A stretch of 64,000 nt of DNA from Lutibacter sp. (GTDB lineage: Bacteria; Bacteroidota; Bacteroidia; Flavobacteriales; Flavobacteriaceae), in contig NZ_JAKIUR010000001.1 in NCBI RefSeq assembly GCF_021647475.1, positions 80,763 to 144,762 on the forward strand, read 5' to 3'. Of the stretch, positions 1 through 13,494 are shown in pieces. The translations under genes and the position numbers were made by a program. Below the pieces are notes generated by a model. That model did no database searches. It was not told the DNA's origin and worked only from the letters and a program-made list of their open reading frames with translations. The stretch's first letter is position 1. Every line of letters starts with the position of its first letter.

Positions 1-233
1 AGTAGTTTCTCCGCTTCTTTTACTTTAATTTCTTTTTCCCATTCAAAACGTGAAATTCCGGTTTTGTTACCAATTCCTTTTACGGTAATAAATGCTTGTT
101 GGTTTCTAATCCGAATTCTAACGGTTCGTTCAGGTACTGTAGATAAAAACCCTTGAGAAATTTGATAGCTTTTTACGGCATGTTTTTTAAAACTACCTTT
201 TACTAAAAATTTTCTTTCAATTTCAATTGCCAT
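1..233 (-). CDS. CYTH domain protein (5' part; runs off the window edge)
   Basis: Manual translation from ATG at 233: MAIEIERKFLVKGSF...QGFLSTVPERTVRIRIR...ITVKG...RFEWE. It has the N-terminal ExExK motif of CYTH/triphosphate tunnel metalloenzymes. Not in the ORF track. Confidence 0.88.
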   Translation of the reverse strand, partial: MAIEIERKFLVKGSFKKHAVKSYQISQGFLSTVPERTVRIRIRNQQAFITVKGIGNKTGISRFEWEKEIKVKEAEKL

Positions 234-256: not shown

Positions 257-426
257 TGTATATCCGTTTTGTGTCATATTTCATATTTATACGTCCTAAA
301 CTCGTTTCAGCATCTCATAGTTTTTACTAATCCCCGATTTGTATTGATGAGACCCTGAAACAAGCCCGCCTGCTGCTGGCAGGTTCAGGGTAACGAACAT
401 TTTATGATTAATTACGGACAATCAAT
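257..426 (-). repeat. ~170-bp REP/REPIN-like element, copy 1
   Basis: Reverse complement aligns with 10051-10225 (TTGATTGTCCGTAATTAATCAT...GTCACCCTGAA...TTGTTTCAGGGT...GACGTATAAATATGAA.TATGACAC.AAACGGATATACA). Carries the 19-nt insert CCCGCCTGCTGCTGGCAGG at 365-383. Confidence 0.9.
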
Positions 427-430
427 TTTA

Positions 431-1717
431 TTATCTGAATTTTACTTCCCACGATATTGATAAAGAATAAATCCAAAAATAATTTCCAGGATCAAAACTA
501 ATTTCTTGATGTGTAATACCAAGAGTGGAACCCCATAAATTTTTATTATTTTTTGATGAGAAATAATACCCTCCACCAAATTTTTGAGAATTTAATTTAA
601 CAATGGCATTTTCATTCCCATTAAAATTAAACCGATCAATTTCCGGCGAATAACCCATACCAACTGAAACGCTAAAATAATTATTAGCGTCGTTTCTATA
701 TTTGCGGTAATTTAAGATTCCAGATTTACTACTACCACTATTATTTGGAGTAATATAAGTTCTAAACGCCCAATAACTATTTCCTGTATACCAAGCAATA
801 GAGCCCGTGTAAATAGTAGTAGTTGAGCTATATTTTAAGGCTCTAAATCCTGCAGAAATTTCAAAACTTTTTGGTAACGATTTATATAATTCCGCTCCGT
901 ACCTAACATCTGGAAACAAAAAAGTATTAGCAAAACCTAAATTAACATAAGCATACAATCCATTAGCAATTCTTGGATATAAATCTACCTCAAACTGCAC
1001 TCCATTTTCTTGAAATCTTCTATTAAAGTTCATTTTTACAATAATGCTTCCATATTTAGTTTGACGACTATATTTTAAAGTATGCAATTGCATAGGATCA
1101 AAAACATCTGAATACAAATCAACAGATGATTTTAATCCAATAGTATTATAACTTAATGCGTCTATAAGACCTTTTTTATATTCAATTGCTTTGCTGTTTT
1201 TTGGGCTATTTAGTAACACTTCCTGAACTGTTTCTAAAGCATCTTCAGGGTTTTTACCGTTTTGTTGTGCTTTTGCTTTTAGCAACAAAATCTCTTCATT
1301 ATTTGGAAAGTGTTTTAGAGCTGATGTTGTTAATTCCAAAGCTTTAAAAGGTGATTCACTCCATAACTCGTTATTTATAGCTGCTATCCAAGTTGTTTTT
1401 CGTTTTGGATCTTTATTAAGCACATTCATAAACTCTTTTCTAGCTTTATTATAATTTCCATCCCAGGAATAAGTACTAGCCAAAAAAGCTCTAATATCAT
1501 TATAATTTGGATATTTGGTTAAAATCAATAACAGCGTATCTTGTGCTTGTTTTCTGTGTTTATTAAACGCTAATTCGCGAGCTACTTTAAATGCAGTATC
1601 TGGGTTTCCAGTAAACTTTTTTTGCTGAGAAAAAACATGAAAAACAGACAAAAAGATTAAAGCGATAGTGAATTTAACAACTAATTTTAACTTTATAGGT
1701 TGCTCATTATATTTCAT
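431..1717 (-). CDS. yaiO: TPR + YaiO-family outer-membrane beta-barrel (polysaccharide-export porin-like)
   Basis: Signal-like N-terminus, TPR-like helices (ARELAFNKHRKQA...YPNYNDIRAFLASTYSWDGNY), then a barrel with the YaiO-like segment DLYPRIANGLYAYVN...FPDVRYGAELY and a C-terminal W-x-V-x-F. Confidence 0.75.
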   Translation of the reverse strand: MKYNEQPIKLKLVVKFTIALIFLSVFHVFSQQKKFTGNPDTAFKVARELAFNKHRKQAQDTLLLILTKYPNYNDIRAFLASTYSWDGNYNKARKEFMNVLNKDPKRKTTWIAAINNELWSESPFKALELTTSALKHFPNNEEILLLKAKAQQNGKNPEDALETVQEVLLNSPKNSKAIEYKKGLIDALSYNTIGLKSSVDLYSDVFDPMQLHTLKYSRQTKYGSIIVKMNFNRRFQENGVQFEVDLYPRIANGLYAYVNLGFANTFLFPDVRYGAELYKSLPKSFEISAGFRALKYSSTTTIYTGSIAWYTGNSYWAFRTYITPNNSGSSKSGILNYRKYRNDANNYFSVSVGMGYSPEIDRFNFNGNENAIVKLNSQKFGGGYYFSSKNNKNLWGSTLGITHQEISFDPGNYFWIYSLSISWEVKFR

Positions 1718-1777
1718 GGATTATTTTTATAGTTTGTCATTCGTAAAAAAACACTACTTATCAATTAAACAAAAAAG

Positions 1778-2332
1778 TTATTCTTGAACTTTCCTACAGT
1801 GATAAATATATTCTGTTGGTATATTTTTTATTGCTTTGATAGTACAATGATTAATAAATATTTTTTGAAATTTTTTGAAATTAAACTTTGTGTATAAAAC
1901 TTGACTATAATAAGCATTGTTGACCAACTTATCATAAGCGTCTTGAATTATTTTATTTCCCTTTTCTTTCGAGAAAAAGGAAAAAGGTATTGACCCAATA
2001 ACTCCATCAACGTTTTCCTTTACATGATTTTTAATGTTTTCTGCCCCATCATTTACTATTATAAGTCTGTCATCATTAATGTTTTTGCGAACATGTTCGC
2101 AAAAACTTTTTTTCACTTCAAATGCATACACCTTTGAAGTTGGTGCTATATTTTTTAATATTTCCCTTGTTATATTACCGTAGCCCATACCAAATTCAAT
2201 AATAATTTTGTGGTCTCCTTTTGGAATATATTTACAAATTTCAATCTCTGCCTTTTTACTGGTTTCATAAATTGCTCCTGTAACAAATAGGTTTTTTGTA
2301 AACGCTAAGGATGTTTTTAATTTCGTAATCAT
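1778..2332 (-). CDS. Class I SAM-dependent methyltransferase, phospholipid N-methyltransferase (PmtA/COG3963)-like
   Basis: SAM motif IIEFGMGYGNIT, acidic AFE motif, DGAENI, and IGSIPFSFF resembling the PmtA S-x-x-P motif. Confidence 0.7.
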   Translation of the reverse strand: MITKLKTSLAFTKNLFVTGAIYETSKKAEIEICKYIPKGDHKIIIEFGMGYGNITREILKNIAPTSKVYAFEVKKSFCEHVRKNINDDRLIIVNDGAENIKNHVKENVDGVIGSIPFSFFSKEKGNKIIQDAYDKLVNNAYYSQVLYTKFNFKKFQKIFINHCTIKAIKNIPTEYIYHCRKVQE

Positions 2333-2376
2333 TCTATTATTTTATAATGAGTGGGTTTTAACGTTAAACTCATCTA

Positions 2377-4791
2377 TTAATTTAAAGATTTTTTAAACGT
2401 TTTATAATCTTTATTATCTGGATATTTAAGCAACAAACTATCCATAATTATTTTTGATTTATTAGTATTTTTTAATCGATTGTATGCCTTTGCCATTTTA
2501 AACCCAATATCCGAATTAGTTAATTTATTTTGTAATGCTTTTTTATAAATTCCAAAAGCTTTTTCATCTTGGTCAGACCACCAATACAAATCTAATAAAG
2601 CCGAATAACTATCAGAATAATATGGATTTCTTTTTGTTACATTTAATAACGTTGATTCTGCTTTTTTATAATTTTTATTCCAAGCATATACTCTTCCTTT
2701 TAAAGTTCTAGCATCATTTTGGTTAGGAAATTCATTTAAGATATAATTACATAATAATATCGCCGTTTTATACTTTTTATTAAATGCATTTTCTCTAGCT
2801 AGATTAAAAATCTGATTAAAATCTAATCCTTTAGTTAACTTTTTAATGGTGGTTAATTCTGTTTTAGAAAATTTAAAGTTTAATTTTCCATAAATATTTA
2901 ATGAGTCTGGATAAATTTTATTTCGTTTAGTTAAGTAGGCATTCAAATTTTTAAATTTATCTAGCGAGTCCTTTATTTCCTCTTGTAACAGGTCTTCTTT
3001 TACTTTGTAAATTCCAAAGTCAGCATTTATTTTATACAAATTACCTGCTGAATAAAAATAATCTTTTAACATATAATCATCAATTTTTCCTTTATATCGC
3101 ATAAATGCAATTTGATGGATGTTTCTAAATTTTTTTGCAGTGTCTAGCCCTGAACTAATCCATGCTACTTCTTTTAACGGATTCATTTTGTAATTATTTA
3201 TCAAAAAAGAAAGTAAACTTGGCGTAATATCCCAATGTGAAGAAACTGATTTAAACGTTTCTGTTTTTTTTAATAAAGGACTTGTAATATACAATGGTAC
3301 ATGAAAACGGCATAATTTATCTTTTTGTGGAATTGGAATTAATCGATGATCTCCTGTAATAATAAAAATGGTGTTTTTGTAATCTGGTCTTTTGGAGTAT
3401 GCTTCCATAAAGTTTTTTATAGAAGTGTCTGTATATAATAAACTAGCAAAAATATCTTTGTATTCTATTACTTTTTCTTTACTTATTTTTAAAACTTTTC
3501 TGGAATTTAAAATACTATCTACTTTTTTTAAATAAGTTTCTTTATTAGGAAAAGTAAAAGGCTCATGATTACTAAGAGTCATAACAATATCTAATCGAGG
3601 TGATTTTTTATGTTGTATAGATACTAACATTTTTTTAAATATTTCTTCATCTGGATAACCCCAAGAGAATCCACCATCATTAGCTTTGGTTATTTTATAT
3701 GCTGAACCGTACTTGCTTTCATCAATTTCATTATCAATTTGATTGTATTCTAAAAAATTAATTTTTCTATCAAATTTAGAAGAACCACCAGAAAAATAAG
3801 ATGTTGTATAGCCATTAGCTTTTAATACACTTATTAAGGATATATGAGATGGCGTATTTTGTATTTCTAAGAAACCTTTATCACCGAAAGGCAAAGAGGC
3901 TGTTATAGATGGTAACGACCCAAAACTTCTACCCGCATTACTTAAAAAATTTTCCCAATACAACGATTTTGGTATTAAGGAATCTAAATATGGGGTAAAC
4001 CCTGCATACTTATGAGTGCCGATAAACTCACCTCCCAATCCTTCAACTATTATAATTACTATGTTTGGTTTAGTTTCTGTAATATTAAAAAATGGTTTTA
4101 AAACATCTTTTATTTTTGAAGAAGGTTCTAATAAAGGGTAATCATTTCTACTATATAAGTTTGCGTTGGTTCTGTGTTTTTCAGCTTGAAAATTAATTAT
4201 ATCAGTAGTTAGATATTGTATTTTATTTTGAAACTGCTCATTAGAAGCATTTGGTAATGCTAATTTTAAGCTACCAAATAACAAAACCATTAAAATTGTA
4301 ATAATCAAAATTTGAGATGGTAATACTCGTTTTTTAAGTAAAAAATAAACCCCATAAAAAAAACCAATTAATATTAATAATGGCAATATGGTAATAAATG
4401 ATAAAGATATTGATGTGGTTACGGTTGCATAAATATCATCATACGAATACCCTAATAAATCTGCTCCTAAATTAACATGAGTGGTTAAGCTATATTTTAC
4501 TAAAGCTGCTTGTATAAATAAAATAATTAAAAATAGCACTTGAAATATTATAATTACACGTTTTTTAAAAATTACACTACACATCCATAACAACGGAAAA
4601 AGGACAATTCCAAGAATAACAATTGCCCAAAAATCATTTATTAATTTATACATTAAGATTACAAAAACAGAAAATTGTGTATTATACTCCGTTAAAGTCC
4701 ATTCTAAAAAGCTGCCCGACCATACTAATATTAGTGCTGTAAATAAAATATATGCATAGCTATATAATAATTTTGAATTAAGCGTTTTCAT
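2377..4791 (-). CDS. LTA-synthase-family (alkaline phosphatase/sulfatase fold) membrane transferase with C-terminal TPR domain
   Basis: About five N-terminal TM helices; PNIVIIIVEGLG metal ligand; NAGRS putative nucleophile; SNHEPF and TGDH metal ligands; C-terminal TPRs. Confidence 0.85.
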   Translation of the reverse strand: MKTLNSKLLYSYAYILFTALILVWSGSFLEWTLTEYNTQFSVFVILMYKLINDFWAIVILGIVLFPLLWMCSVIFKKRVIIIFQVLFLIILFIQAALVKYSLTTHVNLGADLLGYSYDDIYATVTTSISLSFITILPLLILIGFFYGVYFLLKKRVLPSQILIITILMVLLFGSLKLALPNASNEQFQNKIQYLTTDIINFQAEKHRTNANLYSRNDYPLLEPSSKIKDVLKPFFNITETKPNIVIIIVEGLGGEFIGTHKYAGFTPYLDSLIPKSLYWENFLSNAGRSFGSLPSITASLPFGDKGFLEIQNTPSHISLISVLKANGYTTSYFSGGSSKFDRKINFLEYNQIDNEIDESKYGSAYKITKANDGGFSWGYPDEEIFKKMLVSIQHKKSPRLDIVMTLSNHEPFTFPNKETYLKKVDSILNSRKVLKISKEKVIEYKDIFASLLYTDTSIKNFMEAYSKRPDYKNTIFIITGDHRLIPIPQKDKLCRFHVPLYITSPLLKKTETFKSVSSHWDITPSLLSFLINNYKMNPLKEVAWISSGLDTAKKFRNIHQIAFMRYKGKIDDYMLKDYFYSAGNLYKINADFGIYKVKEDLLQEEIKDSLDKFKNLNAYLTKRNKIYPDSLNIYGKLNFKFSKTELTTIKKLTKGLDFNQIFNLARENAFNKKYKTAILLCNYILNEFPNQNDARTLKGRVYAWNKNYKKAESTLLNVTKRNPYYSDSYSALLDLYWWSDQDEKAFGIYKKALQNKLTNSDIGFKMAKAYNRLKNTNKSKIIMDSLLLKYPDNKDYKTFKKSLN

Positions 4792-4805
4792 ATTAATTTA
4801 ATCCT

Positions 4806-6242
4806 TTATTTAGTAATATTTCCCATCCCTTTTCTTGTCATTTCTCCCCATCTTTTCTTTTTATTAAAAAAATAATCTAAGTTTCCTTTAACAGCTGCGT
4901 ATAAAATAAATGGATGCAGCACAAACGGCTCAATTAAACTGATGAGTACTAATTTAAATCCTGATCCTTTTTTTTTGTATTGATGATACGTTAATTCTTC
5001 AGAATAAATTGCCCCTAATGATAATAAAACAGTAAACATGTAAGCTAAAATAAAAAATGCTAAAGCATAATCCCATTTCACTTCCCTTAATATTATTAAA
5101 ATTCCAAAATAAATAATACCTATAACCTCTATAACTGGAGCAAATCTCTCAAAAATTAACCAATAAGGATAACTTAGCAACCCTAAATTTCTATAATTTG
5201 AGTTAAAAGCTATCTTTCGATGTTTTCTTAAAACTTCAATAGTTCCACGAGTCCATCTATTACGTTGAGAAATAAATGTTTTGTAATTATCTGGAGCTTC
5301 CGTCCAACATAAAGGATCTGGAATATAAGCTACTTTATAATTCATATTTTGTTCCTCTAATTGTCTCCGCATTCGCACAATAATTTCCATATCTTCTCCA
5401 ACCGTAGAAGTATCATATCCCCCAATTTGAATTGCAATTTTTTTATGAAACATCCCAAAGGCACCTGAGATAACTAACAAACCATTTAATCTACTCCAAG
5501 CCATTCTCCCTAATAAAAAAGATCGTAAATATTCAAGTATTTGGGCTTTTTCTATAAGTTTATTTGGCAAATTTACTTCCATTAATTTACCATCTTTAAT
5601 AATACTGTTATTTACTATTCTAATAACGCCACCTGTTGCTACTACTTTTTTATTGGTAACTTCTAAAAAGGGTTTTACCATTTTTTGTAAAGCGTCTTCT
5701 AACAATAAACAATCTACATCAATACAAGCTACATATTTACTGTTACTAATATTCAAACCCATATTTAAAGCATCTGCTTTTCCTCCATTTTCTTTGTCTA
5801 TGACTATCAACTTTTCAAAAGCAGGATTTGTAGATTTAAAAACTCCTTTACGTAATGGTTTCGTTTTCAATTGTGGATTTATCAAGTACTTTACTTTTAC
5901 TAAATCATAAGCTTTTATTAATAATTCTAAGCTGTTATCCTTACTTCCATCATTTACTATAATAACATCATAATTTGCATAATGATTTGACAATAATGAT
6001 CGAACATTTTCAACAATATTTAATCTTTCATTATATGCTGGTGCAATAATTGAAATGGAAGGTGCAATATTTGAAGAAAGTATTTTTGTGTAATCAACAA
6101 AATTATTTTTTTTAAAATAATCAATGGTTTCAAAAGCTGAAATTATAGACAAAATAATATAGGAAGAAATAGCCAAAAAAGCATAGGTAAAAAACAAGTA
6201 ATGTATTACTTGAATTATAGCATTTAAGGTAATTGTATTCAT
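4806..6242 (-). CDS. Processive GT2 glycosyltransferase (PgaC/IcaA/YaiP-like polysaccharide synthase)
   Basis: APAYNE, NDGSKD, NGGKADALN, IDVD (DxD), SGAFGMF, GEDME and QRNRW (QxxRW) motifs, with N- and C-terminal TM helices. Confidence 0.92.
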   Translation of the reverse strand: MNTITLNAIIQVIHYLFFTYAFLAISSYIILSIISAFETIDYFKKNNFVDYTKILSSNIAPSISIIAPAYNERLNIVENVRSLLSNHYANYDVIIVNDGSKDNSLELLIKAYDLVKVKYLINPQLKTKPLRKGVFKSTNPAFEKLIVIDKENGGKADALNMGLNISNSKYVACIDVDCLLLEDALQKMVKPFLEVTNKKVVATGGVIRIVNNSIIKDGKLMEVNLPNKLIEKAQILEYLRSFLLGRMAWSRLNGLLVISGAFGMFHKKIAIQIGGYDTSTVGEDMEIIVRMRRQLEEQNMNYKVAYIPDPLCWTEAPDNYKTFISQRNRWTRGTIEVLRKHRKIAFNSNYRNLGLLSYPYWLIFERFAPVIEVIGIIYFGILIILREVKWDYALAFFILAYMFTVLLSLGAIYSEELTYHQYKKKGSGFKLVLISLIEPFVLHPFILYAAVKGNLDYFFNKKKRWGEMTRKGMGNITK

Positions 6243-6245
6243 ACA

Positions 6246-7346
6246 TTAATTATTTTGAATAAATTTTAAAATGTTATTGTCAAAATTGTTATTCTTTTTT
6301 AATAAATTATTAAAAGACTTCTCACTAATGTTTTTCAGCATTTTTAATGCGGAATATTGAATCTCAAAATTGTTATTGGTACTATTTTCAATAATAAAAT
6401 CCTCGTCATTAGGTTCGTAAATATTTTCAAACATTTTTAAAGTTGCAATTTGTTCTTCTAAACTTCTCACTTTGAAACTATTTTTCAAAATTTCTTTAGC
6501 ATCTAAAACTTGTAAATGCGTTATAACATCAATAACTTGTAATCTTATTTTTTGATTTGTGTGATTTAATAATTGTATCAGAGTATCAACGATTTCATAC
6601 TTATTATAAATTTTAGCTAATTTTAATGAAAACAACACCACAGTTTCATTTTTAGATTTTAGCCAAGGAGTAATATCTGGAATTTCTTGATTCTCGAAAT
6701 GTTTTAATTCTTCCAACAACTCAATTTGATCCCATTCGGATAAGTTAACTTTTAAATTATTTAAAAATTCGAGACCTTCAAAATGAAATAGGCTAACTAA
6801 ATATAACTCCACTTCTTTACGAACTTCTTTTTTAGGATGTTTTAGTAATTTTTTTACCTCAGGATAGGCTTCTTTAACTTTAAATTGTGCAAGCTCTTTA
6901 ATTCCATTAGCTACTATGTACCGTTTTTTACTTTTTATTTGCTGATATGCATATTCTTTTAAATTAGATTTTAAATATAAATTTTGAATAGCCCTTTCAA
7001 TTTCTCCTGAAACTTCGTTTTTCAATTTTAATAAAGTTTCTACTATGATTTTTCGTTTAAAATCATCGTTTATTTTACTTTGAATGATTTTAATAAACTC
7101 ATTTTGATGTTCACTTAATTCATTATCATTTGATTCTTCAAACAAATAAGATAATAAGAGCCCTTCGTACTTATGTTGTAATTTAATTTTTAATACTTCT
7201 TTTTTTCTTAATAAATTTCTTAAAAACTTTAAATAAATCGATAAGGTGATTACAATGCAAGCTAAAAAAGAACTCAAAATCCAAACCAATTGTAATTCAA
7301 TTGGCAATTGCTGAAAATAATTTTGAAGAATTTTAAAAGTTTCCAA
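6246..7346 (-). CDS. Membrane-anchored HEAT-repeat protein
   Basis: One N-terminal TM (LVWILSSFLACIVITLSIYL) followed by HEAT-like repeats (KKLLKHPKKEVRKEV, QLLNHTNQKIRLQVI). TTG start. Confidence 0.75.
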   Translation of the reverse strand: METFKILQNYFQQLPIELQLVWILSSFLACIVITLSIYLKFLRNLLRKKEVLKIKLQHKYEGLLLSYLFEESNDNELSEHQNEFIKIIQSKINDDFKRKIIVETLLKLKNEVSGEIERAIQNLYLKSNLKEYAYQQIKSKKRYIVANGIKELAQFKVKEAYPEVKKLLKHPKKEVRKEVELYLVSLFHFEGLEFLNNLKVNLSEWDQIELLEELKHFENQEIPDITPWLKSKNETVVLFSLKLAKIYNKYEIVDTLIQLLNHTNQKIRLQVIDVITHLQVLDAKEILKNSFKVRSLEEQIATLKMFENIYEPNDEDFIIENSTNNNFEIQYSALKMLKNISEKSFNNLLKKNNNFDNNILKFIQNN

Positions 7347-7363
7347 GTTAAAACGGTTTGGGA

Positions 7364-7732
7364 TTAGATTAATATTCTTTTAATTCTAATTATTAATTCA
7401 TTGGGACTAAAAGGTTTTGCCATAAAATCAGTTGCCCCCAAATTAAAGGCTTTTAACACCATTTCTTCTTGCCCAGCCGCAGAAAAAACAATAATTGGAG
7501 TTTCTAACTTTAATTTATTTTTTACGTGGCTTATCACTTCTAAACCACTAATAAATGGCATCATAATATCTGTTAGAATTAAATTTGGATTATGTTTTTC
7601 AATAAGTTCAATAGCTTGTTTTCCATCTTGAGCTATAAAAGCAGTATATCCTTCTTTTTGAAGTCTAAATTTTAATAATTGAGATAATGTGGTGTTATCT
7701 TCTGCTAAAACAATATTTTTTGTTTCGTTCAT
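7364..7732 (-). CDS. Single-domain response regulator (REC only)
   Basis: LAEDN, ILTDIMMP phospho-acceptor Asp, AKPF; no output domain. Confidence 0.93.
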   Translation of the reverse strand: MNETKNIVLAEDNTTLSQLLKFRLQKEGYTAFIAQDGKQAIELIEKHNPNLILTDIMMPFISGLEVISHVKNKLKLETPIIVFSAAGQEEMVLKAFNLGATDFMAKPFSPNELIIRIKRILI

Positions 7733-10017
7733 TCTCTTAAAGATTTAAGTTCAATCTTTAATTCTTTTTTCACATTCACTATAATACTCTTGCCTTTTTT
7801 TACTAAAGAATCTACATCTTCCAAATCTATTTCTTCTTTAAATTTTTGTTCTAAAGAAAATACTATAGGTTCTAATTTTGTAATACCAAACATACTAATG
7901 CTTGGTTTAATTTTATGTGTTTCTTTATATAAATCTTGCCATTTTTTTAGTTTAACTTTCTCATCTAATAACTGCATATATGCCTTTAAATCTTTAAAAA
8001 ATAGTTCAATTAAAAGCACTAGAACAGTAGATTCATTAAGAGTTTCCTTCTCTAAAAATTCTAAATTTATATGCTTATAACTTCTTTTAACTTCATTTTT
8101 CATAGTAGGTTCAATTATTTTTGGATGATCACCATACTTCTTTAGAATTTTAAATAATTCGTCGGGTTTAAAAGGTTTAAAAATATAGTCATCCATACCC
8201 GCTTCTAGGGCTCTTTTAATCTCTGTTTTAGAGGTAAATGCAGTCATTGCAATGATTGGAATTTTTGAAACCTCCTCCGATATATCATTTTTAATAATTT
8301 TAGTTGCCTCATAACCATCCATAACAGGCATTTGTATATCCATCATAATAATATCATACAGTTGCTGCTGTGTTTTTTTTACGCCTTCAAATCCGTTATC
8401 GGCAATATCCACAGTGCAATTCCATCTTTGTAAACGTGTTTTTGCAAGTAATTGATTGGTTTTATTATCTTCAACTAACAAAATGGAATATCCTAAATTT
8501 TTATCATTTACTTCTTCTTTACTTTTTTCAGCATTAATTTTGCTACTATTTTTTTCTCCAATTTTTAAAGGTAATACCATTGTAAATGTACTTCCTTTTC
8601 CAAACACACTTTCTACTTTAATTTCTCCGTTTAGTAAGTTAATTAATTTTTTTACAATAGTAAGACCCAATCCTGTACCTCCATAAATTCTTGAAGTGTC
8701 GTTTTTGGCTTGTGTGAAAGCACCAAAAACTGAATTAATTTTATTAGACACAATTCCAATTCCAGTATCTTTTATTTCAAAAGAAATGGTCGCTATTTTA
8801 TCATTTTCTTCTATTTTAACTACTGTTATGGTTACTCCACCTTTATCAGTAAACTTTATGGCATTACCTATAAGATTTAATAAAATTTGACTAATTCTAT
8901 TTGAATCACTAACTACTTCAGAGGGTGTATTTGAATTAATAATTAAATCTAGTGAAATTCCTTTTTCTTGGGCTTTTACTCTCATTAATTTAACAACTTC
9001 ATTTAAAGTTCTCTTTAAATTAAATGATGTTTTTTCTATTTCAAATTTATTAGATTCTAATTTAGAAAGGTCTAGTACATTATTTATAAGCGTAAGCAAA
9101 ATTTCACCTGATGTATGCATGGTTTCTAAATGCTGACGCTGCTCTGTTGTTAATGTTGTTTCTAATAATAAATCCGTAAAACCAATAACTGCATTTAGTG
9201 GAGTTCTAATTTCGTGACTCATATTTGCTAAAAATTCATTTTTAACTTGTACCGATTCTTCAGCTGCTTCTTTCGCTTTTTTTAGTTCAAAATCTTGTAA
9301 AATTCTATCCGTAATATCTGATCCAATTGAAATATAAGTATCATTCACTCCCTTTGAATATTGCCATTCAATCCACTTATCTAATCCTTCTTTAGTTTTA
9401 AGTTTCTGTTTAAAGATATCTAAATAACTTCCTTTGTTTGAAAAAATATAATTATTAATGGCTTCTTTAGCATCTTCAGCTTTGTTTTTACTTAAAAACA
9501 CTTTTTGCCACCAATTTCTACCTAAAACTTCATTTGCTGTATATCCTAATATTTTTTCAATAGAAGGTGATACAAAAATTATTTCTCCATTTTTATTGCT
9601 TACTAGAACAATAGATGGAATATTTTTTAATATTGCTTCTGATTGAATTTTATGTTCTTCTTTCTTTTTCCAATCGGAAATATCTACTCCTACAGAAACA
9701 AAATTGTTATTAGCACCTAAAGAGTCTCTCCACTCAATCCACCTACAACTTCCATCTTTACAAAGCATTCTTCGTTCATATACTTTTCCGTTTATAGGAG
9801 ATTTATTAGATAATATTTTAATAACATTTTGCTTAAAGGCTAAACCATCTTTTTTATTACAATAGGTGTTTTCCCACCATAAATCACCTAATAAATTTTC
9901 AGTTTTGTAGCCACTTATTTTTTCAACTGCTGCAGAAACATATTTAATATGTCCTTTTTCATCTGCTGAAATTGCAATCAAGTTCGCATCGTTTAAAAGT
10001 AATTCTGAGGTTTTCAC
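7729..10017 (-). CDS. Soluble hybrid histidine kinase, PAS-PAS-HisKA-HATPase-REC-HPt
   Basis: Two PAS folds, no TM; H-box FLANMSHEIRTPLN; N-box LLNLIGNAIKFT; G boxes DTGIGI/GGTGLGL; REC MMDIQMP; HPt HKIKPS. GTG start. Confidence 0.93.
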   Translation of the reverse strand: MKTSELLLNDANLIAISADEKGHIKYVSAAVEKISGYKTENLLGDLWWENTYCNKKDGLAFKQNVIKILSNKSPINGKVYERRMLCKDGSCRWIEWRDSLGANNNFVSVGVDISDWKKKEEHKIQSEAILKNIPSIVLVSNKNGEIIFVSPSIEKILGYTANEVLGRNWWQKVFLSKNKAEDAKEAINNYIFSNKGSYLDIFKQKLKTKEGLDKWIEWQYSKGVNDTYISIGSDITDRILQDFELKKAKEAAEESVQVKNEFLANMSHEIRTPLNAVIGFTDLLLETTLTTEQRQHLETMHTSGEILLTLINNVLDLSKLESNKFEIEKTSFNLKRTLNEVVKLMRVKAQEKGISLDLIINSNTPSEVVSDSNRISQILLNLIGNAIKFTDKGGVTITVVKIEENDKIATISFEIKDTGIGIVSNKINSVFGAFTQAKNDTSRIYGGTGLGLTIVKKLINLLNGEIKVESVFGKGSTFTMVLPLKIGEKNSSKINAEKSKEEVNDKNLGYSILLVEDNKTNQLLAKTRLQRWNCTVDIADNGFEGVKKTQQQLYDIIMMDIQMPVMDGYEATKIIKNDISEEVSKIPIIAMTAFTSKTEIKRALEAGMDDYIFKPFKPDELFKILKKYGDHPKIIEPTMKNEVKRSYKHINLEFLEKETLNESTVLVLLIELFFKDLKAYMQLLDEKVKLKKWQDLYKETHKIKPSISMFGITKLEPIVFSLEQKFKEEIDLEDVDSLVKKGKSIIVNVKKELKIELKSLRE

Positions 10018-10050
10018 TTATTAATATTTTCTATTTTATTATTTAATTTT

Positions 10051-10225
10051 ATTGATTGTCCGTAATTAATCATGAAATGTTCGTCACCCTGTACTTGTTT
10101 CAGGGTATCATTAATATAAATCGGTGATTGTCAAAACTATGAGATGTTGAAACAAACCCGCCTGCTGCTGGCAGGTTCAGCATGACGACGTATAAATATG
10201 AAGTATGACACTAAACGGATATACA
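10051..10225 (+). repeat. ~170-bp REP/REPIN-like element, copy 2
   Basis: Two inverted REP hairpins (GTCACCCTGTACTTGTTTCAGGGT; GAGATGTTGAAACAA..TTCAGCATGACG) plus conserved flanks; 19-nt insert at 10157-10175. Confidence 0.9.
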
Positions 10226-10338
10226 CTAATTTTATAATTTATCTAACGAATTTTACCTATTATTCAAAAACATGTACCATTTACTTGTAAATATAATTAA
10301 ATTTTAGCTTGTTTATACCATTAATATAGATGTGTTTT

Positions 10339-10449
10339 TTGATTATCCGTAATTAATCATAAAATGTTCGTCACCCTGAACCTGCCAGCAGCAGGTAGGT
10401 TCAGCATGACGACGTATAAATATGAAGTATGACACTAAACGGATATACA
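10339..10449 (+). repeat. Internally deleted copy 3 of the same element
   Basis: Same left and right flanks as copy 2. The left arm of hairpin 1 is joined via the insert CCTGCCAGCAGCAGGTAGG (10381-10399) to the right arm of hairpin 2. Confidence 0.88.
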
Positions 10450-10464
10450 CATGTGTTTTTATTT

Positions 10465-10497
10465 AAAAAAAAAAAAAAGCCACTTAAAAGCGGCTTT
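10465..10497 (-). terminator. Intrinsic terminator of the lipoprotein gene
   Basis: Minus strand AAAGCCGC-TTTTAA-GTGGC followed by 14 T. Confidence 0.8.
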
Positions 10498-10517
10498 CAT
10501 TTAATCAAGAGAGGGGT

Positions 10518-11921
10518 TTATAAACGCTCAAAAACTAATTTGCTTTCAGCATTTGTATCACTATCAATGTTTTTAACCTCAACCCTAGCTGTTTGTACAT
10601 CAACAGTAATCCAATCTTCATTAAATTCATTAAAAGGAATAATTTCATTAAAATTTAGTTCTAATTTTAATTTACCACTATCATATACAACTTCCCAGAT
10701 TCCGTTAACAACATCGCTATTTTTTGTTGCAGTAACGGTACCATCAGTCATAAAATCTAAAACAAAATCATTATAATTACTAGTTTCACTAACGCCTTTA
10801 TTCATAAAATCGGCTATTTCCCAAGTTCCTTCGCTTAATGTGTCTTCTAATAACGTTTTGTCTTCTGAACAAACTTTTTCTAAAGTAAGTTCATTGTCTT
10901 CAAAAGTTAAATCTATTTCAGAGAGGTTGTCATTATATTCGTGAAGATTCCAATTGAAAGAAAAATCGGATAATCCTTCAAAATTAATTTTCACCAAAAT
11001 TTCAGTATCTGTTTGCTCTATAATCCAAGTTCCTTGTAATTCATTTCCGTTATTTTTGGCTACAACAGTGCCATCTTCATTAAAAGTAAAAATATAATTT
11101 GCGTATTGTTCGCTATTATCTTGCTCACTAATTTTTACAGTGCTAGGCATCCAACTACAAGTAAGCAACATTTCGGTAATTTGTTCAACGCTACAGTTTA
11201 CACAATCATCATCATTATAATCATTATTATCATCTTCGTTACATGTATTTTTTGCATTATCAATTGCTGTTGCTAACTCATCCATATTATTAATGGTTTT
11301 TTCAGTTCCATCAGCTAAAACCATAGTAATAGGAAAATTAATTTGAACAATATCACTTTCGTTCATATCTTCTAAAAATAAATAGAATTGTTCATCATTT
11401 TCTACGGAAATAGTATCTGTAAGTTCATTTACTGAGTCAAAAATTGAAAAAGTAATTGGATATACAAAATCAATACATTCAATATCATCATCTGGTTCAT
11501 TTTCTCCACCACACTGATTTACGTAATTTTCTAGTTCATCCATATTATTAATAGTAATTTCAGTATAATCACTTAAAATAATAGTAATTGGAAAAATAAT
11601 GTCTAAATGATCTACATCAAAATTAAATTGGTCAAAAATAGTTTCAATTTCAGCATAATCTGCTTCAGATGATATTACAATTTCTAATCCGTTAACTATA
11701 ACAGTTACAGGTAGTTGCACGCTTATACAACTAGCATTATCTATAATATTATCTTTTGAGCCATCTTTTGTAACTGTTTTTTCAACTAATGTTGCAACAG
11801 TGGTATTAGGTGTTAAAATCTCATTTTGTTGTGGTTGCACAACAGTTGTAATTTCTTTTTGACATGAAAAAAGAAATACAGAAATTAAGCTTAAAATAAA
11901 AAAGTAATTTTTCAGTTTCAT
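10518..11921 (-). CDS. Acidic lipoprotein with internal repeats and two C-terminal lipocalin-like domains
   Basis: Lipobox FLFS-C; repeated C-x3-x-(Y/F/L)P-(I/V)T motifs; duplicated F-x-F-x-x-DGTV-x-A...G-x-W units; Asp/Asn-rich stretches. Confidence 0.75.
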   Translation of the reverse strand: MKLKNYFFILSLISVFLFSCQKEITTVVQPQQNEILTPNTTVATLVEKTVTKDGSKDNIIDNASCISVQLPVTVIVNGLEIVISSEADYAEIETIFDQFNFDVDHLDIIFPITIILSDYTEITINNMDELENYVNQCGGENEPDDDIECIDFVYPITFSIFDSVNELTDTISVENDEQFYLFLEDMNESDIVQINFPITMVLADGTEKTINNMDELATAIDNAKNTCNEDDNNDYNDDDCVNCSVEQITEMLLTCSWMPSTVKISEQDNSEQYANYIFTFNEDGTVVAKNNGNELQGTWIIEQTDTEILVKINFEGLSDFSFNWNLHEYNDNLSEIDLTFEDNELTLEKVCSEDKTLLEDTLSEGTWEIADFMNKGVSETSNYNDFVLDFMTDGTVTATKNSDVVNGIWEVVYDSGKLKLELNFNEIIPFNEFNEDWITVDVQTARVEVKNIDSDTNAESKLVFERL

Positions 11922-12024: not shown

Positions 12025-12540
12025 ATGCCAATAAAAAATAAAAATGAGTTCTGTAATGAAAAAAAGTTTACTTCTTTTTTTTTAGAGCAATCTACATTAC
12101 TTTTTAACTATATATTTTATAAATGTGGCAATACGGATTTAGCAGATGATATTGTACAAGAGGCTTTTATTAAAATTTGGAACAATTGCTCAAAAATAAT
12201 TCCGAATAAAGCAAAATCATTTTTATTTACTATTGCAACTAATTTATTTTTAAATGAATATGCAAAAACATCCGTTATTATTAATTATAAAAATACCATT
12301 AAAAAAGATTACACTAATGAGTCTCCTGAATTTATTTTGGAAGAAAAAGAATTTGAGGTGAAATTACAAAAAGCTATCTCAAATTTAACTGAAACACAAC
12401 GCGTTGCTTTTTTAATGCACAGAATAGATGGGAAAAAATATAGAGAAATTGCGGAATTATTAGGAATTTCTATAAAAGCAGTTGAAAAAAGAATTCATAA
12501 TGCTTTATTAAGTTTAAGAAAAGAAATTGATGAAATTTAA
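12025..12540 (+). CDS. ECF RNA polymerase sigma factor
   Basis: Region 2 ADDIVQEAFIKIW; region 4 KYREIAELLGISIKAVEKRI. Confidence 0.92.
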   Translation: MPIKNKNEFCNEKKFTSFFLEQSTLLFNYIFYKCGNTDLADDIVQEAFIKIWNNCSKIIPNKAKSFLFTIATNLFLNEYAKTSVIINYKNTIKKDYTNESPEFILEEKEFEVKLQKAISNLTETQRVAFLMHRIDGKKYREIAELLGISIKAVEKRIHNALLSLRKEIDEI

Positions 12541-12545
12541 AAAAA

Positions 12546-12571
12546 GTAGGGTAAATGCTTTTTTAATTGTT
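12546..12571 (+). promoter_or_regulatory. Putative ECF-sigma promoter GTAGGGTA-N14-TGTT (fecR-like/TonB receptor operon)
   Basis: Motif lies directly after the sigma stop codon, 20 nt before the ATG at 12592. Confidence 0.7.
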
Positions 12572-12591
12572 TATAGGTTATATTTAAGAAT

Positions 12592-13494
12592 ATGAAAGAA
12601 AACTACTTTTTAGCCAAATGGTTAGCTAATGAAATTACAGACGAAGAGCTTAAAAAAAATATAAGCACGGAAGAGTTTATCACTTATAAAAAAATTAAAA
12701 CGACTTCTGAAAACTTAATTGCACCTAAATTTAATGCAGAAAATATATTAAGCACCATACAAGAAAATAAACGAAAACAAAAGGTTTTAAAACTGCGTTT
12801 TAATTATTTCTATAAAATAGCAGCAATGCTAGCGATTATTATTACTTCATTTTATTTTATTTCTTCTAAAAACACGGTTTACACTACTAAATATGCTGAA
12901 AAAACTAGTTTTGAATTACCAGATGAATCTAAAGTTGATTTAAATGCTGATTCTAAAATTACGTTTAAAGAAAAAAATTGGAATACTCATAGAAATTTAA
13001 AATTAAAAGGAGAAGCTTTTTTTAGCGTAAAAAAAGGATCAAAATTTACAGTAAATACTAAATTAGGTTCCGTAAGCGTTTTAGGTACTAAGTTTAATGT
13101 AATTGCAAGAGACGATTATTTTCAAGTTACGTGTTACAGAGGTTTGGTTAGTGTTAGCTATAAAAACAAAACTGTAAAAGTTCCAGCAGGAACTTCATTT
13201 AAAACAGCTAAAAATTATACCGCACAAACTTTTGAAATTAATGATAAATTACCTTCTTGGATCCAAGATTTTAGTTCATTTAAAAGTATGCCGTATCATT
13301 TTGTAATTGAAGAATTACAACGACAATACAAAATAAAAATAGTGTATAATCATAAATATTCAAAGACATTATTTACGGGTAATTTTACACATACCAACTT
13401 AAAAACAGCATTAAAATCAATTACAGTACCTTTAAATTTAACTTTTAAAACTATTGGTGAGCATAAGGTTTCTTTTATTGAAAATAAAAATTAA
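12592..13494 (+). CDS. FecR-family anti-sigma factor
   Basis: Single TM; LPDESKVDLNADS, LKGEAFFSVKKG and VSVLGTKFNV FecR motifs. Confidence 0.92.
   Translation: MKENYFLAKWLANEITDEELKKNISTEEFITYKKIKTTSENLIAPKFNAENILSTIQENKRKQKVLKLRFNYFYKIAAMLAIIITSFYFISSKNTVYTTKYAEKTSFELPDESKVDLNADSKITFKEKNWNTHRNLKLKGEAFFSVKKGSKFTVNTKLGSVSVLGTKFNVIARDDYFQVTCYRGLVSVSYKNKTVKVPAGTSFKTAKNYTAQTFEINDKLPSWIQDFSSFKSMPYHFVIEELQRQYKIKIVYNHKYSKTLFTGNFTHTNLKTALKSITVPLNLTFKTIGEHKVSFIENKN

Follow-up and report, generated by a model that had tools for sequence, protein, structure and literature searches.

A conserved Bacteroidota gene cluster proposed to encode a receiver-controlled exopolysaccharide system with a YaiO-family exit porin

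The window examined in this study, a stretch of 64,000 nucleotides from Lutibacter (Flavobacteriaceae), carries seven co-oriented genes on its minus strand at positions 431-10017. From the upstream end, these encode a soluble PAS hybrid kinase with an Hpt domain (7729-10017, 762 aa), a single-domain receiver, REC (7364-7732, 122 aa), a HEAT solenoid protein with one transmembrane (TM) helix (6246-7346, 366 aa), a PgaC-like processive GT2 synthase (4806-6242, 478 aa), an LtaS/OpgB-type membrane transferase with a C-terminal TPR module (2377-4791, 804 aa), a small SAM methyltransferase resembling PmtA and OlsG (1778-2332, 184 aa), and a protein that joins TPRs to a 14-strand YaiO barrel (431-1717, 428 aa). 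All seven reading frames were confirmed at these coordinates, and the gaps between them, from kinase to porin, are −4, 17, 3, 14, 44 and 60 bp. A preliminary description, which had proposed seven co-oriented genes separated by −4 to 60 bp, is correct on this point. Its domain calls for all seven proteins were likewise upheld by Pfam and NCBIfam (including TIGR04390), with its LTA-synthase-type transferase now refined to the LtaS/OpgB branch. Also upheld for the seven proteins was its statement that PilZ, GGDEF, MshEN, Wzx, Wzy and Wza are absent, as no such domain was detected in them with Pfam or NCBIfam. Early Bacteroidetes genomes have many histidine kinases and zero diguanylate cyclases (PMC1183210). 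No publication describing the cluster was found in the literature searched.

An intrinsic-terminator-like hairpin, with a 10-bp stem followed by T10, is present on the minus strand at 10475-10498. This strong terminator closes the upstream gene at 10518-11921, and we infer that it also marks the 5′ boundary of a seven-gene transcription unit, an assignment made from sequence alone in the absence of a transcript map. A scan within the cluster revealed no terminator of comparable strength. In promoter searches, a sigma-70 scan returned no more sites than shuffled sequence did, and the Bacteroidetes −7 motif occurred at the frequency expected by chance.

The GT2 protein consists of an N-terminal TM region, a cytoplasmic GT-A domain and three C-terminal TM helices, and it matches Pfam GT2 families as well as Chitin_synth_2. 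Its motifs (D98, D175xD177, G282-E-D284 and Q326xxRW330) are kept throughout an alignment of 79 sequences (77 orthologues, E. coli PgaC and the window protein). The only exceptions are an N at position 177 in a single sequence and a T at position 282 in PgaC. Bit scores against E. coli synthases are 83 for PgaC, 25 for BcsA, 25 for YaiP and 4 for NfrB, and the alignment with PgaC shows 30% identity over 294 aa with the motifs in register. Sequence establishes this protein as a PgaC-like membrane synthase that carries the full set of catalytic motifs of processive GT2 enzymes, while its activity is a prediction. Because it scores only 142 bits against the NCBIfam PgaC_IcaA equivalog (cut-off 422), the sugar it uses is not identified.

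The gene for the HEAT protein is always paired with that for the synthase, usually with translational coupling (median gap 2 bp, n = 72 loci), and we propose, by inference, that its product is a synthase co-subunit and the receptor for phosphorylated REC (REC~P). The protein (Pfam HEAT_2, 38 bits) is bitopic, with a short periplasmic N terminus, a single TM helix at residues 20-38 and a cytoplasmic HEAT/ARM solenoid. An N-out topology is implied by orthologues that carry N-terminal LysM extensions or extensions that, judged by eye, are SPOR-like. The family signature is LSEWDQ (W205, Q207). An AF2 model (pLDDT 81) is all-helical, and its structural matches are generic ARM/HEAT solenoids with no specific functional match. 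A profile search for the HEAT protein returned 1755 representative clusters. A HEAT-GT2 pair is also found in a Bacillus genome.

The transferase belongs to the Pfam Sulfatase family (93 bits). Five or six N-terminal TM segments form a bundle (~4252-4791) that precedes a periplasmic catalytic domain (~3202-4074), carrying E250, the nucleophile S289, H409 and D481/H482, and a C-terminal TPR module (~2380-2814), all encoded on the minus strand. Among orthologues the active site is conserved, with an intact metal site and a Ser or Thr nucleophile. Profile comparison with the PDB placed VP1736 first (84 bits) and LtaS enzymes next. Similarity to OpgB was also detected (E = 7e-10), with no match to BcsG, EptB or OpgE. 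Placement in the BcsG/Ept (phosphoethanolamine) branch was rejected, as the protein falls in the LtaS/OpgB (phosphoglycerol) branch. However, its score against the OpgB equivalog is 24 bits (cut-off 572), and both the donor lipid and the acceptor are therefore unestablished. Its TPR module is paralogous to that of the YaiO porin (33% identity, E = 8e-21), a relationship seen in all nine genera that were tested.

The adjacent methyltransferase gives only weak matches. Methyltransf_25 (26.7 bits) lies marginally under its cut-off of 27, and the NCBIfam models OlsG (48 bits) and PmtA (37 bits) are matched over the full length but far below their cut-offs. A SAM motif, EFGMGYG, occupies residues 46-52, and one member of the 90% cluster is named ‘phospholipid N-methyltransferase’ by IMG. 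We regard the protein as a cytoplasmic accessory of PmtA/OlsG type, similar to lipid N-methyltransferases, with an unidentified substrate.

The last gene product matches PF19413 (211 bits) and TIGR04390 (182 bits, cut-off 32) and contains TPRs. A signal peptide (~1628-1717), with cleavage before the invariant Q31, is followed by ten TPR helices (~1154-1603), which form a periplasmic arm, and the outer-membrane barrel (~434-1144), again on the minus strand. The AF2 model (pLDDT 83) has 14 strands, and its top Foldseek matches in the PDB are BcsC (E = 9e-10) and PelBC, which are exporters of cellulose and Pel, with the 14-strand barrels OmpG and CymA among further matches. Described exporters have 16-18 strands, and the YaiO barrel is smaller. 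No characterised member of the YaiO family, and none shown to conduct polysaccharide, was found in the literature searched. We propose that this protein is an export porin, an inferred role not earlier assigned to the family. The neighbours of E. coli yaiO, which are the GT2 gene yaiP, the PIG-L deacetylase gene yaiS and the acyltransferase gene yaiX, provide an independent link between YaiO barrels and GT2 synthases.

At the upstream end, the kinase contains two PAS domains, HisKA (79 bits), HATPase_c (93 bits) and REC (97 bits), and its Hpt match of 24.5 bits is marginally under the Pfam cut-off of 24.6. All phospho-residues were found (H268 in HisKA, D560 in REC and H701 in Hpt). Its hydropathy profile reveals no TM segment, indicating a soluble protein, and its stop codon overlaps the start of the receiver gene by 4 bp. 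The sole domain of the receiver is REC (Pfam Response_reg, 98 bits), without an output domain and with intact key residues (E11/D12, the acceptor D55, S84 and K106). Since the Lutibacter relay already ends in Hpt, REC is the terminal acceptor, and we infer that it could serve as a phospho-switch. The receiver is 66-93% identical among Flavobacteriaceae genera, and its gene always lies directly upstream of HEAT or of YaiO-HEAT. Median gaps are 19 bp for REC-HEAT, −4 bp for REC-YaiO and −8 bp for kinase-REC.

Conservation was surveyed in loci with full flanks, 43 of Flavobacteriaceae type and 15 from more distant Bacteroidota. The order REC-HEAT-GT2-transferase-YaiO is unchanged in all 43 of the former, which span many genera, a recurrence that puts the arrangement far beyond chance. 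The preliminary description had named a lack of co-conservation as the test that would refute it, and the survey gave the opposite result. Its seven-gene unit held in part. The conserved unit is five genes, to which the methyltransferase (14/43 loci, solely with the transferase and in two alternative positions) and an adjoining kinase (10/43, mostly Lutibacter) are accessory. In other genera a stand-alone Hpt gene takes the kinase's place, as in three loci (L006, L010 and L079) where it adjoins REC. Hpt, either fused or stand-alone, is beside REC in 23/43 loci, and neither Hpt nor kinase adjoins in 20/43, which means that the genes of the input pathway often lie elsewhere.

The 15 distant loci retain HEAT (15/15), YaiO (15/15) and REC (13/15), whereas the transferase is present in only two. 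One of the two loci outside the REC count has a weak, divergent REC reading frame by Pfam. YaiO is kept in all 58 full-flank loci. Most of the distant loci are ordered REC-YaiO-HEAT-GT2. Independent, more divergent metagenomic loci show the same pattern, and in two of these a hybrid kinase of HisKA-HATPase-REC(-Hpt) architecture adjoins. L086 reads HK(Hpt)-REC-HEAT-GT2-Sulfatase-YaiO, L083 reads HK-REC-HEAT followed by a gene truncated by the contig end, and L084 and L085 read REC-YaiO-CotH-LysM-HEAT-GT2.

The best reading of these observations, to which we assign a probability of roughly 0.65, is an exopolysaccharide system of the synthase-dependent kind that extends across the entire envelope, is gated by REC~P and exports its product through YaiO. 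This reading is inferred, with no experimental data behind it. The earlier proposal of a synthase-dependent pathway under phosphorelay control is supported, while what the polymer is, how the synthase is gated and what phenotype results are inferred rather than shown, and the suggested roles as biofilm matrix or phage receptor are still guesses without supporting data.

In the proposed mechanism, the GT2 protein would build the polymer from a nucleotide sugar, and the growing chain would pass through the TM channel of the same protein. REC would be fed by Hpt, fused to the hybrid kinase in Lutibacter and stand-alone in other genera, and the soluble double-PAS kinase would bring in a signal from the cytoplasm that is particular to Lutibacter. 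REC~P may then dock on the HEAT solenoid or on a HEAT-GT2 complex, a contact that is purely inferred, and so turn the synthase on post-translationally, filling the role of the c-di-GMP receptors (PilZ, the PgaD interface, MshEN) of proteobacterial systems. The transferase would act in the periplasm and pass a phospho-head-group to the nascent chain, most likely sn-glycerol phosphate from phosphatidylglycerol, so that the polymer would carry an anionic decoration resembling that of teichoic acids. Through their matching TPR modules, transferase and porin may be held to each other or to the polymer, and the YaiO barrel would be the exit of the chain, with the methyltransferase as an optional tailoring enzyme. 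If true, this would be a complete machine for making, decorating and exporting a polysaccharide that is switched by a phosphorylated receiver rather than by c-di-GMP.

Among known systems, the Lutibacter synthase is closest to that of E. coli Pga, which makes PNAG with the PgaC/PgaD synthase, the PgaB deacetylase and the PgaA porin. The DxD, ED and QRxRW motifs align with those of PgaC, and both systems place a small or bitopic membrane partner beside the synthase and include a periplasmic tailoring enzyme and a TPR-plus-barrel exporter. However, the Lutibacter proteins fall under the equivalog cut-offs (for PgaA, 26 against 367 bits, with the PgaC shortfall given above), no PgaB-type deacetylase is in the cluster, and the synthase is partnered by a 366-aa HEAT solenoid without significant similarity to PgaD. 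The barrel is of the 14-strand YaiO family, and a receiver stands in place of a c-di-GMP element. The Bcs system (BcsA-PilZ, BcsB, BcsC and the phosphoethanolamine transferase BcsG) provides the best structural match to the exporter, in BcsC, and a parallel in the BcsG concept (which appears in the annotation of locus L089), whereby an inner-membrane-anchored enzyme of the alkaline phosphatase superfamily adds a lipid head-group to the nascent chain. Lutibacter differs in its distant synthase, in lacking PilZ and BcsB, and in a transferase that has no detectable BcsG similarity and carries its own TPR module.

E. coli Nfr (NfrB GT2-MshEN, the TPR porin NfrA, and YbcH) is the glycan receptor system of phage N4 (PMC8669469). 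The comparison with Nfr drawn in the preliminary description holds architecturally only. Both systems combine an inner-membrane processive GT2 with an outer-membrane TPR-barrel and, in Lutibacter by inference, a signal receptor attached to the synthase, but there is no sequence relation (the YaiO-NfrA comparison is also not significant), and Lutibacter lacks MshEN and YbcH. The uncharacterised yaiS-yaiP-yaiX-yaiO cluster of E. coli K-12, in which IS2 disrupts yaiX, similarly sets a PF19413 barrel with a membrane GT2 and tailoring genes in one orientation. E. coli YaiO, however, lacks the TPR arm, YaiP shares just 25% identity, a PIG-L deacetylase and an acyltransferase do the tailoring, and HEAT, REC and LtaS-type genes are missing. 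OpgB (phosphoglycerol transferase I) and LtaS share with the Lutibacter transferase the catalytic family, the metal ligands, a nucleophile aligned to the LtaS Thr and an N-terminal multi-TM anchor. They differ from it in lacking the C-terminal TPR module, and in Lutibacter a secreted polymer presumably takes the place of OPG or a glycolipid as acceptor. Myxococcus xanthus EpsW-EpsZ (PMC12802240) belongs to a Wzx/Wzy pathway, where the target is a phosphoglycosyl transferase and the input comes from a Che-like system, whereas in Lutibacter the target would be the synthase/HEAT pair of a synthase-dependent pathway, an interaction that is unproven.

The alternative that survives best, although we consider it unlikely, is that the machine is as described but has a receiver that makes no contact with the synthase. 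REC would be a relay intermediate, a phosphate sink or a regulator acting via an unlinked transcription factor, and HEAT a constitutive structural co-subunit like PgaD or BcsB. Single-domain response regulators can regulate gene expression within phosphorelays (PMC12802240), the 20 loci without adjoining Hpt or kinase are compatible with this view, and the HEAT fold offers no specific functional match. Against it, the output-less REC is the gene tied most tightly to the structural genes (43/43), is highly similar among genera and touches or overlaps the HEAT or YaiO gene. The cluster also contains no conserved transcription-factor gene, and the position of REC after Hpt makes it a terminal acceptor.

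Two further alternatives appear very unlikely. The product could be a retained periplasmic or envelope glycan, like the osmoregulated periplasmic glucans decorated by OpgB, with YaiO as an anchor or in an unrelated outer-membrane role. This view draws support from OpgB being the sole E. coli relative of the transferase, from a barrel with fewer than 16-18 strands and from the lack of a characterised YaiO member. It is opposed by the presence of YaiO in every full-flank locus, by the exporters BcsC and PelBC as best matches of its TPR-plus-barrel, by the PgaC-like synthase (OpgH was outside the comparison), by the TPR paralogy of transferase and porin, and by the company of E. coli yaiO with GT2 and polymer-tailoring genes. 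Alternatively, in a lipoteichoic-acid-like pathway, GT2 would make a glycolipid or short primer on which the LtaS-type enzyme polymerises a displayed poly(glycerol phosphate). The solved relatives of the transferase are LTA synthases and primases, and a GT2 with LtaS recalls the glycolipid anchor and LtaS of Firmicutes. However, the QxxRW motif and multi-TM layout of GT2 are those of processive polysaccharide synthases, and 13 of the 15 distant loci lack the transferase but retain GT2, HEAT, YaiO and either REC or a divergent copy of it, which indicates a decorating accessory rather than the core polymerase. That the seven genes are chance neighbours without a functional unit, for which the variable methyltransferase and kinase and the lack of transcript evidence might speak, is all but excluded by a five-gene core whose identical order, with gaps of a few bp or overlaps, runs through all 43 loci and many genera and recurs in divergent metagenomic loci.

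The seven ORFs at window positions 431-10017 all lie on the minus strand and encode, from 5' to 3', a hybrid kinase, a receiver (REC), a transmembrane HEAT-repeat protein (TM-HEAT), a GT2 synthase, an LtaS/OpgB-type transferase, a methyltransferase and a YaiO-family porin. A preliminary description had named these same seven ORFs and given a gap range of -4 to 60 bp; both statements hold, the individual gaps being -4, 17, 3, 14, 44 and 60 bp. The GC content of the cluster is about 25-31%, similar to that of the surrounding DNA, and the GT2 is 92-97% identical to proteins of Lutibacter MAGs, which assigns the window to a species of Lutibacter (Flavobacteriaceae).

However, the conserved core of this arrangement comprises only five genes. 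A single scan of 185,579 species genomes yielded 80 loci, whose ORFs were called and compared to the window proteins. Forty-three of these, termed Flavobacteriaceae-type here, have full flanks and a GT2 at least 69% identical to that of the window; they derive from Lutibacter, Flavivirga, Flaviramulus, Confluentibacter, Algibacter, Gaetbulibacter, Snuella, Bizionia, Gelidibacter, Aquimarina, Flavobacterium and others. The HMM search and gene-neighbourhood survey that the preliminary description had proposed confirm the YaiO assignment and place REC, HEAT, transferase and YaiO genes each in 43 of 43 such loci, with the gene order of the window. Fifteen more distant loci, from Bacteroidales, Rikenellaceae, Marinilabilia, Lentimicrobiaceae and Christiangramia, usually have the order REC-YaiO-HEAT-GT2. 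They carry HEAT (15/15), YaiO (15/15) and REC (13/15, plus a weak REC ORF in one further locus, L066), with a transferase in 2/15 and a methyltransferase in 0/15. YaiO is thus co-conserved in all 58 full-flank loci. As each ORF was called from its first start codon, the median intergenic distances are lower bounds: HEAT and GT2 are at least 2 bp apart (n=72), REC and HEAT 19 bp, REC and YaiO -4 bp, and kinase and REC -8 bp.

The two remaining genes are accessory. An adjacent kinase occurs in 10 of the 43 Flavobacteriaceae-type loci, largely those of Lutibacter, and a methyltransferase in 14 of the 43, where it lies either between transferase and YaiO (as in the window and in locus L037) or after YaiO; the closest of the Lutibacter loci, L002 and L003, lack it. 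Separately, a contig labelled as a Chlorobiota MAG (L029) carries a REC-HEAT-GT2-transferase cluster whose GT2 is 74% identical to that of the window. Such a GT2 is typical of Flavobacteriaceae, and the contig is likely mis-binned.

The genes on either side mark the limits of the cluster. Downstream, past an intergenic repeat, is a gene for a CYTH-domain protein (3-233, minus strand), and on the upstream side are genes for an ECF sigma factor, a FecR-like anti-sigma factor and a TonB-dependent receptor (12025-16036, plus strand), all unrelated to the cluster. The product of the gene immediately preceding the cluster (10518-11921, minus strand) is 467 aa long and matches only the lipocalin-like (DUF4923) and META families, both weakly. 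Four Lutibacter loci (L002, L003, L036 and L044) keep this gene ahead of their kinase, and it adjoins the cluster in Lutibacter loci only. It is terminated by a strong hairpin followed by T10 at 10498-10475, which separates it from the cluster, and no comparable terminator was found inside the cluster. Given the unrelated flanking genes and this terminator, the cluster is well bounded.

The 478-aa GT2 has an N-terminal transmembrane region and three C-terminal transmembrane helices (residues 367-449). Its motifs D98, D175xD177, G282-E-D284 and Q326xxRW330 are conserved across 79 aligned sequences, 77 of which are orthologues, apart from one deviating sequence at each of two positions, including an N at 177. 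Among E. coli synthases it most resembles PgaC (83 bits, 30% identity, all motifs aligned), followed by BcsA (25 bits), YaiP (25 bits) and NfrB (4 bits). The score against the PgaC/IcaA PNAG synthase model TIGR03937 is 142 bits, which is so far below the 422-bit equivalog cut-off that no sugar can be assigned. The cluster nevertheless meets the criteria for a synthase-dependent system: an inner-membrane processive GT2 with D, DxD, (T/G)ED and QxxRW motifs and a transmembrane channel; an outer-membrane barrel porin with periplasmic TPR repeats encoded alongside the synthase; and the absence of components of other export routes. Searches of the seven proteins and flanking genes with Pfam and NCBIfam found no Wzx, Wzy, Wza, ABC-transporter or undecaprenyl-phosphate priming enzyme. 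In the complete genome of Flavobacterium faecale WV33 (L046, 9977-11410), the GT2 reading frame is broken after about residue 131 and continues in another frame, which is likely a frameshift pseudogene, or an assembly error, within an otherwise intact cluster.

The proposed exporter is a 428-aa protein with a signal peptide, TPR repeats and a YaiO barrel. It satisfies YaiO-family membership over the full domain by both curated cut-offs, scoring 211 bits against PF19413 (cut-off 23.9; profile positions 2-172 of 173) and 182 bits against TIGR04390 (cut-off 32; positions 1-230 of 230). Q31, directly after the predicted cleavage site, is invariant in 20 aligned orthologues, which fits the cleavage habit of Bacteroidota, where Gln often follows the signal-peptide cleavage site. 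In an AF2 model (pLDDT 83), residues 39-188 form ten TPR helices and residues 192-427 form 14 beta-strands. By Foldseek against the PDB, this model is closest to BcsC (E 9e-10), which exports cellulose, and then to the Pel exporter PelBC, and the barrel alone matches the 14-strand channels OmpG and CymA. In sequence the protein resembles neither PgaA nor NfrA, and the PgaA model TIGR03939 aligns to the TPR region alone with 26 bits, short of its cut-off of 367.

No published function for the YaiO family was found in the literature searched. In E. coli K-12, yaiO is one of four co-oriented neighbours, yaiS-yaiP-yaiX-yaiO (L081; NC_000913, 380069-384616), that encode a PIG-L deacetylase, a membrane GT2, an acyltransferase and the outer-membrane barrel. 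YaiP is 25% identical to the window GT2, and yaiX is split by IS2 (IS2A). This locus may represent a decayed, uncharacterised polysaccharide locus of the synthase type. Because yaiO clusters likewise in E. coli, the link of YaiO barrels to GT2 synthases and to enzymes that tailor polymers extends over two phyla. A role as glycan exporter remains an inference, as passage of a glycan has yet to be demonstrated for any YaiO barrel.

The 804-aa transferase combines five to six N-terminal transmembrane helices, a Sulfatase-family domain (93 bits against PF00884) and a C-terminal TPR module. Its only solved relatives are VP1736, LTA synthases and primase. All 13 aligned orthologues have the metal ligands E250, H409, D481 and H482, and residue 289, which aligns to the nucleophilic Thr of LtaS, is Ser or Thr. 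A Gly suggested at this position by a pairwise alignment with VP1736 was overturned by the 13-sequence and LtaS profile alignments, which show S289. The protein therefore has the Sulfatase domain, metal ligands and Ser/Thr nucleophile behind a multi-pass anchor that are expected of LtaS/OpgB-type enzymes, and from the invariant ligands and aligned nucleophile we infer that it is a catalytically competent member of this branch. A profile of the 13 orthologues matches E. coli OpgB (E 7e-10) and has no significant match to E. coli BcsG, EptB or OpgE. The score against the OpgB model PRK12363 is 24 bits, with the 572-bit cut-off not reached.

The most economical prediction from this family chemistry is that the enzyme works in the periplasm, taking glycerol phosphate from phosphatidylglycerol and adding it to the polymer. 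The decoration claimed in the preliminary description is thereby refined to a putative phosphoglycerol type rather than a phosphoethanolamine type. An alternative scheme, in which BcsG-like phosphoethanolamine decoration is followed by N-methylation by a PmtA-like methyltransferase, was dropped since the transferase profile matches only OpgB/LtaS. The soluble 184-aa methyltransferase aligns to OlsG (48 bits) and PmtA (37 bits) over its full length but weakly, below the curated cut-offs of 350 and 250 bits, respectively. IMG calls one member of its cluster a 'phospholipid N-methyltransferase', although its likeness to lipid N-methyltransferases is no more than a resemblance.

The TPR modules at the C-terminus of the transferase (2380-2814, minus strand) and at the N-terminus of the porin (1154-1603, minus strand) are paralogues, with 33% identity over 142 aa (E 8e-21). 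This paralogy holds in nine of nine genera examined. Identities are 53% among transferase modules, 58% among porin modules and 28% between the two, a pattern of divergence across genera which indicates that the duplication is ancient. In the Pga, Pel and alginate systems, the TPR on the porin side recruits a periplasmic tailoring enzyme. For comparison on this type of recruitment we refer to PMC9734138. Possession of the same module by transferase and porin raises the possibility, which is inferred only, that the two dock together or share a docking partner.

Well-studied synthase-dependent systems are usually switched by c-di-GMP. The preliminary description had reported no PilZ, GGDEF or MshEN domain and no Wzx/Wzy/Wza, and this held for the seven proteins with Pfam and NCBIfam, which also revealed no EAL domain. 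The features of a c-di-GMP-gated synthase (PilZ, MshEN, degenerate GGDEF or PgaD) are thus not met, and the HEAT protein has no significant similarity to PgaD. Instead, the residues for a His-Asp-His-Asp phosphorelay are present. The 762-aa hybrid kinase, which lacks transmembrane segments, has two PAS domains, HisKA (H268), HATPase, REC (D560) and Hpt (H701), while the 122-aa receiver consists of a REC domain alone with E11, D12, D55, S84 and K106 intact. These residues are consistent with a phosphorelay ending in a single-domain receiver, with phosphotransfer itself being inferred.

The kinase diverges much faster than the synthase (57-82% versus 91-95% identity). An HMM built from stand-alone Hpt genes detects Hpt, fused or free, in 23 of the 43 Flavobacteriaceae-type loci and a stand-alone form in 15 of the 43. 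Stand-alone genes, such as those recognized by Pfam in loci L006 (8154-8522), L010 (8103-8516) and L079 (6174-6524), overlap the start of REC in genera without an adjacent hybrid kinase. Post-translational control is supported by the fact that the receiver lacks an output domain, is co-conserved with the structural genes and is highly conserved in sequence. An early census reported Bacteroidetes genomes with many histidine kinases and zero diguanylate cyclases (PMC1183210), although Porphyromonas gingivalis possesses one diguanylate cyclase (PMC9757075). The scarcity of c-di-GMP enzymes in that census provides an evolutionary rationale for a phosphorelay substitute.

The 366-aa HEAT protein has one transmembrane helix (residues 20-38), then a basic stretch and a HEAT solenoid. 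Its AF2 model (pLDDT 81) is all-helical and resembles generic ARM/HEAT proteins only; all matches are designed or eukaryotic solenoids that provide no functional lead. A profile search of 1.84 billion representatives recovered 1755 representative clusters, 622 of them at E <= 1e-30, and many matches are 700-1200 aa long. The possibility that these long forms are HEAT-GT2 Rosetta-stone fusions was rejected, as Pfam finds no GT2 domain in 10 long homologues. In two of three long variants looked up (L082 and L086), the HEAT gene is directly upstream of a separate GT2 gene, and in the third (L083) the following gene is truncated by the contig end. The gene orders are HK(Hpt)-REC-HEAT-GT2-Sulfatase-YaiO in L086 and HK-REC-HEAT in L083.

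Additional variants occur in Bacteroidales-type clusters. Loci L084 and L085 have the order REC-YaiO-CotH-LysM-HEAT-GT2, and CotH-family (atypical kinase) genes are within or next to such clusters in L079 (3010-6111), L084 (8582-9964) and L085 (2035-3417). The HEAT protein of L084 (P0403; 10001-11767) carries two LysM domains by Pfam in an N-terminal extension, and those of L054 (8319-10004) and L079 (8250-9926) have N-terminal extensions judged by eye to be SPOR-like. Because orthologues carry LysM or SPOR-like extensions at this end, the short N-terminus of the HEAT protein is inferred to be periplasmic, which would place the solenoid in the cytoplasm, as are REC and the GT2 catalytic domain. 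The extensions might also tether the synthase complex to peptidoglycan.

A TM-HEAT protein of 349 aa also lies directly upstream of a GT2 (41% identical to that of the window) in Bacillus sp. FJAT-28004 (L071, 3449-11338), and it aligns with the Bacteroidota HEAT family at an hhalign probability of 94.5%. From its appearance, this could be a Gram-positive version of the HEAT-GT2 pair. The presence of the pair in Bacillus indicates that it predates the addition of REC and YaiO, which is specific to Bacteroidota. This TM-HEAT protein is preceded by two large proteins, of 730 and 1052 aa, with no Pfam match.

The interpretation of the cluster as a synthase-dependent EPS system, as advanced in the preliminary description, is supported with refinements in the core, the accessory genes and the type of decoration. 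In the mechanism we propose, the receiver would obtain its phosphate from the hybrid kinase or, by way of a free Hpt, from an unlinked kinase, and would then bind the cytoplasmic HEAT solenoid or the synthase. Binding would activate the PgaC-like GT2 to polymerise and translocate the chain, the LtaS/OpgB-type enzyme would decorate this chain as it emerges, and the TPR modules would bridge the periplasm to the YaiO barrel, which would export the product. We favor this reading of an EPS machine gated by phosphorylated REC at a probability of about 0.65, where the polymer, co-transcription, phenotype and REC contact are all inferred.

Such a machine would work like those of Pga, Bcs, Pel and Nfr, but the cluster fails the family membership test of each. 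Moreover, neither a TM-HEAT co-subunit nor gating by a receiver, as proposed here, has been described for these systems, nor has an LtaS-type decorator with its own TPR or a porin of the YaiO family, and no description of a REC-HEAT-GT2-transferase-YaiO system was found in the literature searched. To our knowledge, there are no well-studied synthase-dependent systems (cellulose, PNAG, alginate, Pel, Nfr) outside Proteobacteria and Firmicutes. Bacteroidota are abundant polysaccharide specialists of marine, soil and gut environments, and their own matrix polymers are poorly known. The cluster would give this phylum a synthase-dependent EPS system with a different control logic, wherein a two-component receiver acts directly on the machine. 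It would also define a new co-subunit family of TM-HEAT proteins with ~1750 representative clusters and assign a role to the orphan YaiO outer-membrane family, including the uncharacterised E. coli locus. A bearing on marine particle colonisation, biofilms and phage adsorption is conceivable.

A bolder reading holds jointly that the phosphorylated, CheY-like receiver binds HEAT as a membrane adaptor and opens the PgaC-like synthase, and that a chain bearing teichoic-acid-like glycerol-phosphate groups, added by a TPR-tethered LtaS-type enzyme, exits through a 14-strand YaiO porin in Bacteroidota; we consider this full combination less likely than not. Under the bolder reading, Bacteroidota, which are poor in c-di-GMP signalling, may own a widespread synthase-dependent EPS machine. 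If true, this would be the first bacterial polysaccharide synthase gated by phosphorylation and not by c-di-GMP, and the YaiO family, including the protein of the E. coli yaiSPXO locus, would gain a polysaccharide-exporter function.

The 450-bp leader of the cluster contains no detectable riboswitch or known RNA element. A scan for sigma-70 promoters gave 57 sites versus 68.5 expected from shuffled sequence and hence no excess, and the Bacteroidetes -7 motif occurs only at chance frequency, such that a promoter could not be assigned. A MITE-like repeat of 110-190 bp is present in three copies, at 257-425 (plus strand), 10040-10225 (minus strand) and 10335-10445 (minus strand). Its ends are conserved (TGTATATCCGTTTAGTGTCATACTTCATATTTATACGTC ... 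CAGGGTGACGAACATTTTATGATTAATTACGGAYAATCAA) and its internal modules are variable, including a CCTGC...GCAGG hairpin. The 15-base core of the conserved 3' end has zero exact matches among 81 loci. Within the 64-kb window the repeat is found only at the two cluster borders, in inverted orientation, and the sole Bacteroidetes-type -7 box of the 5' leader (10139-10132, minus strand) falls within one of its copies.
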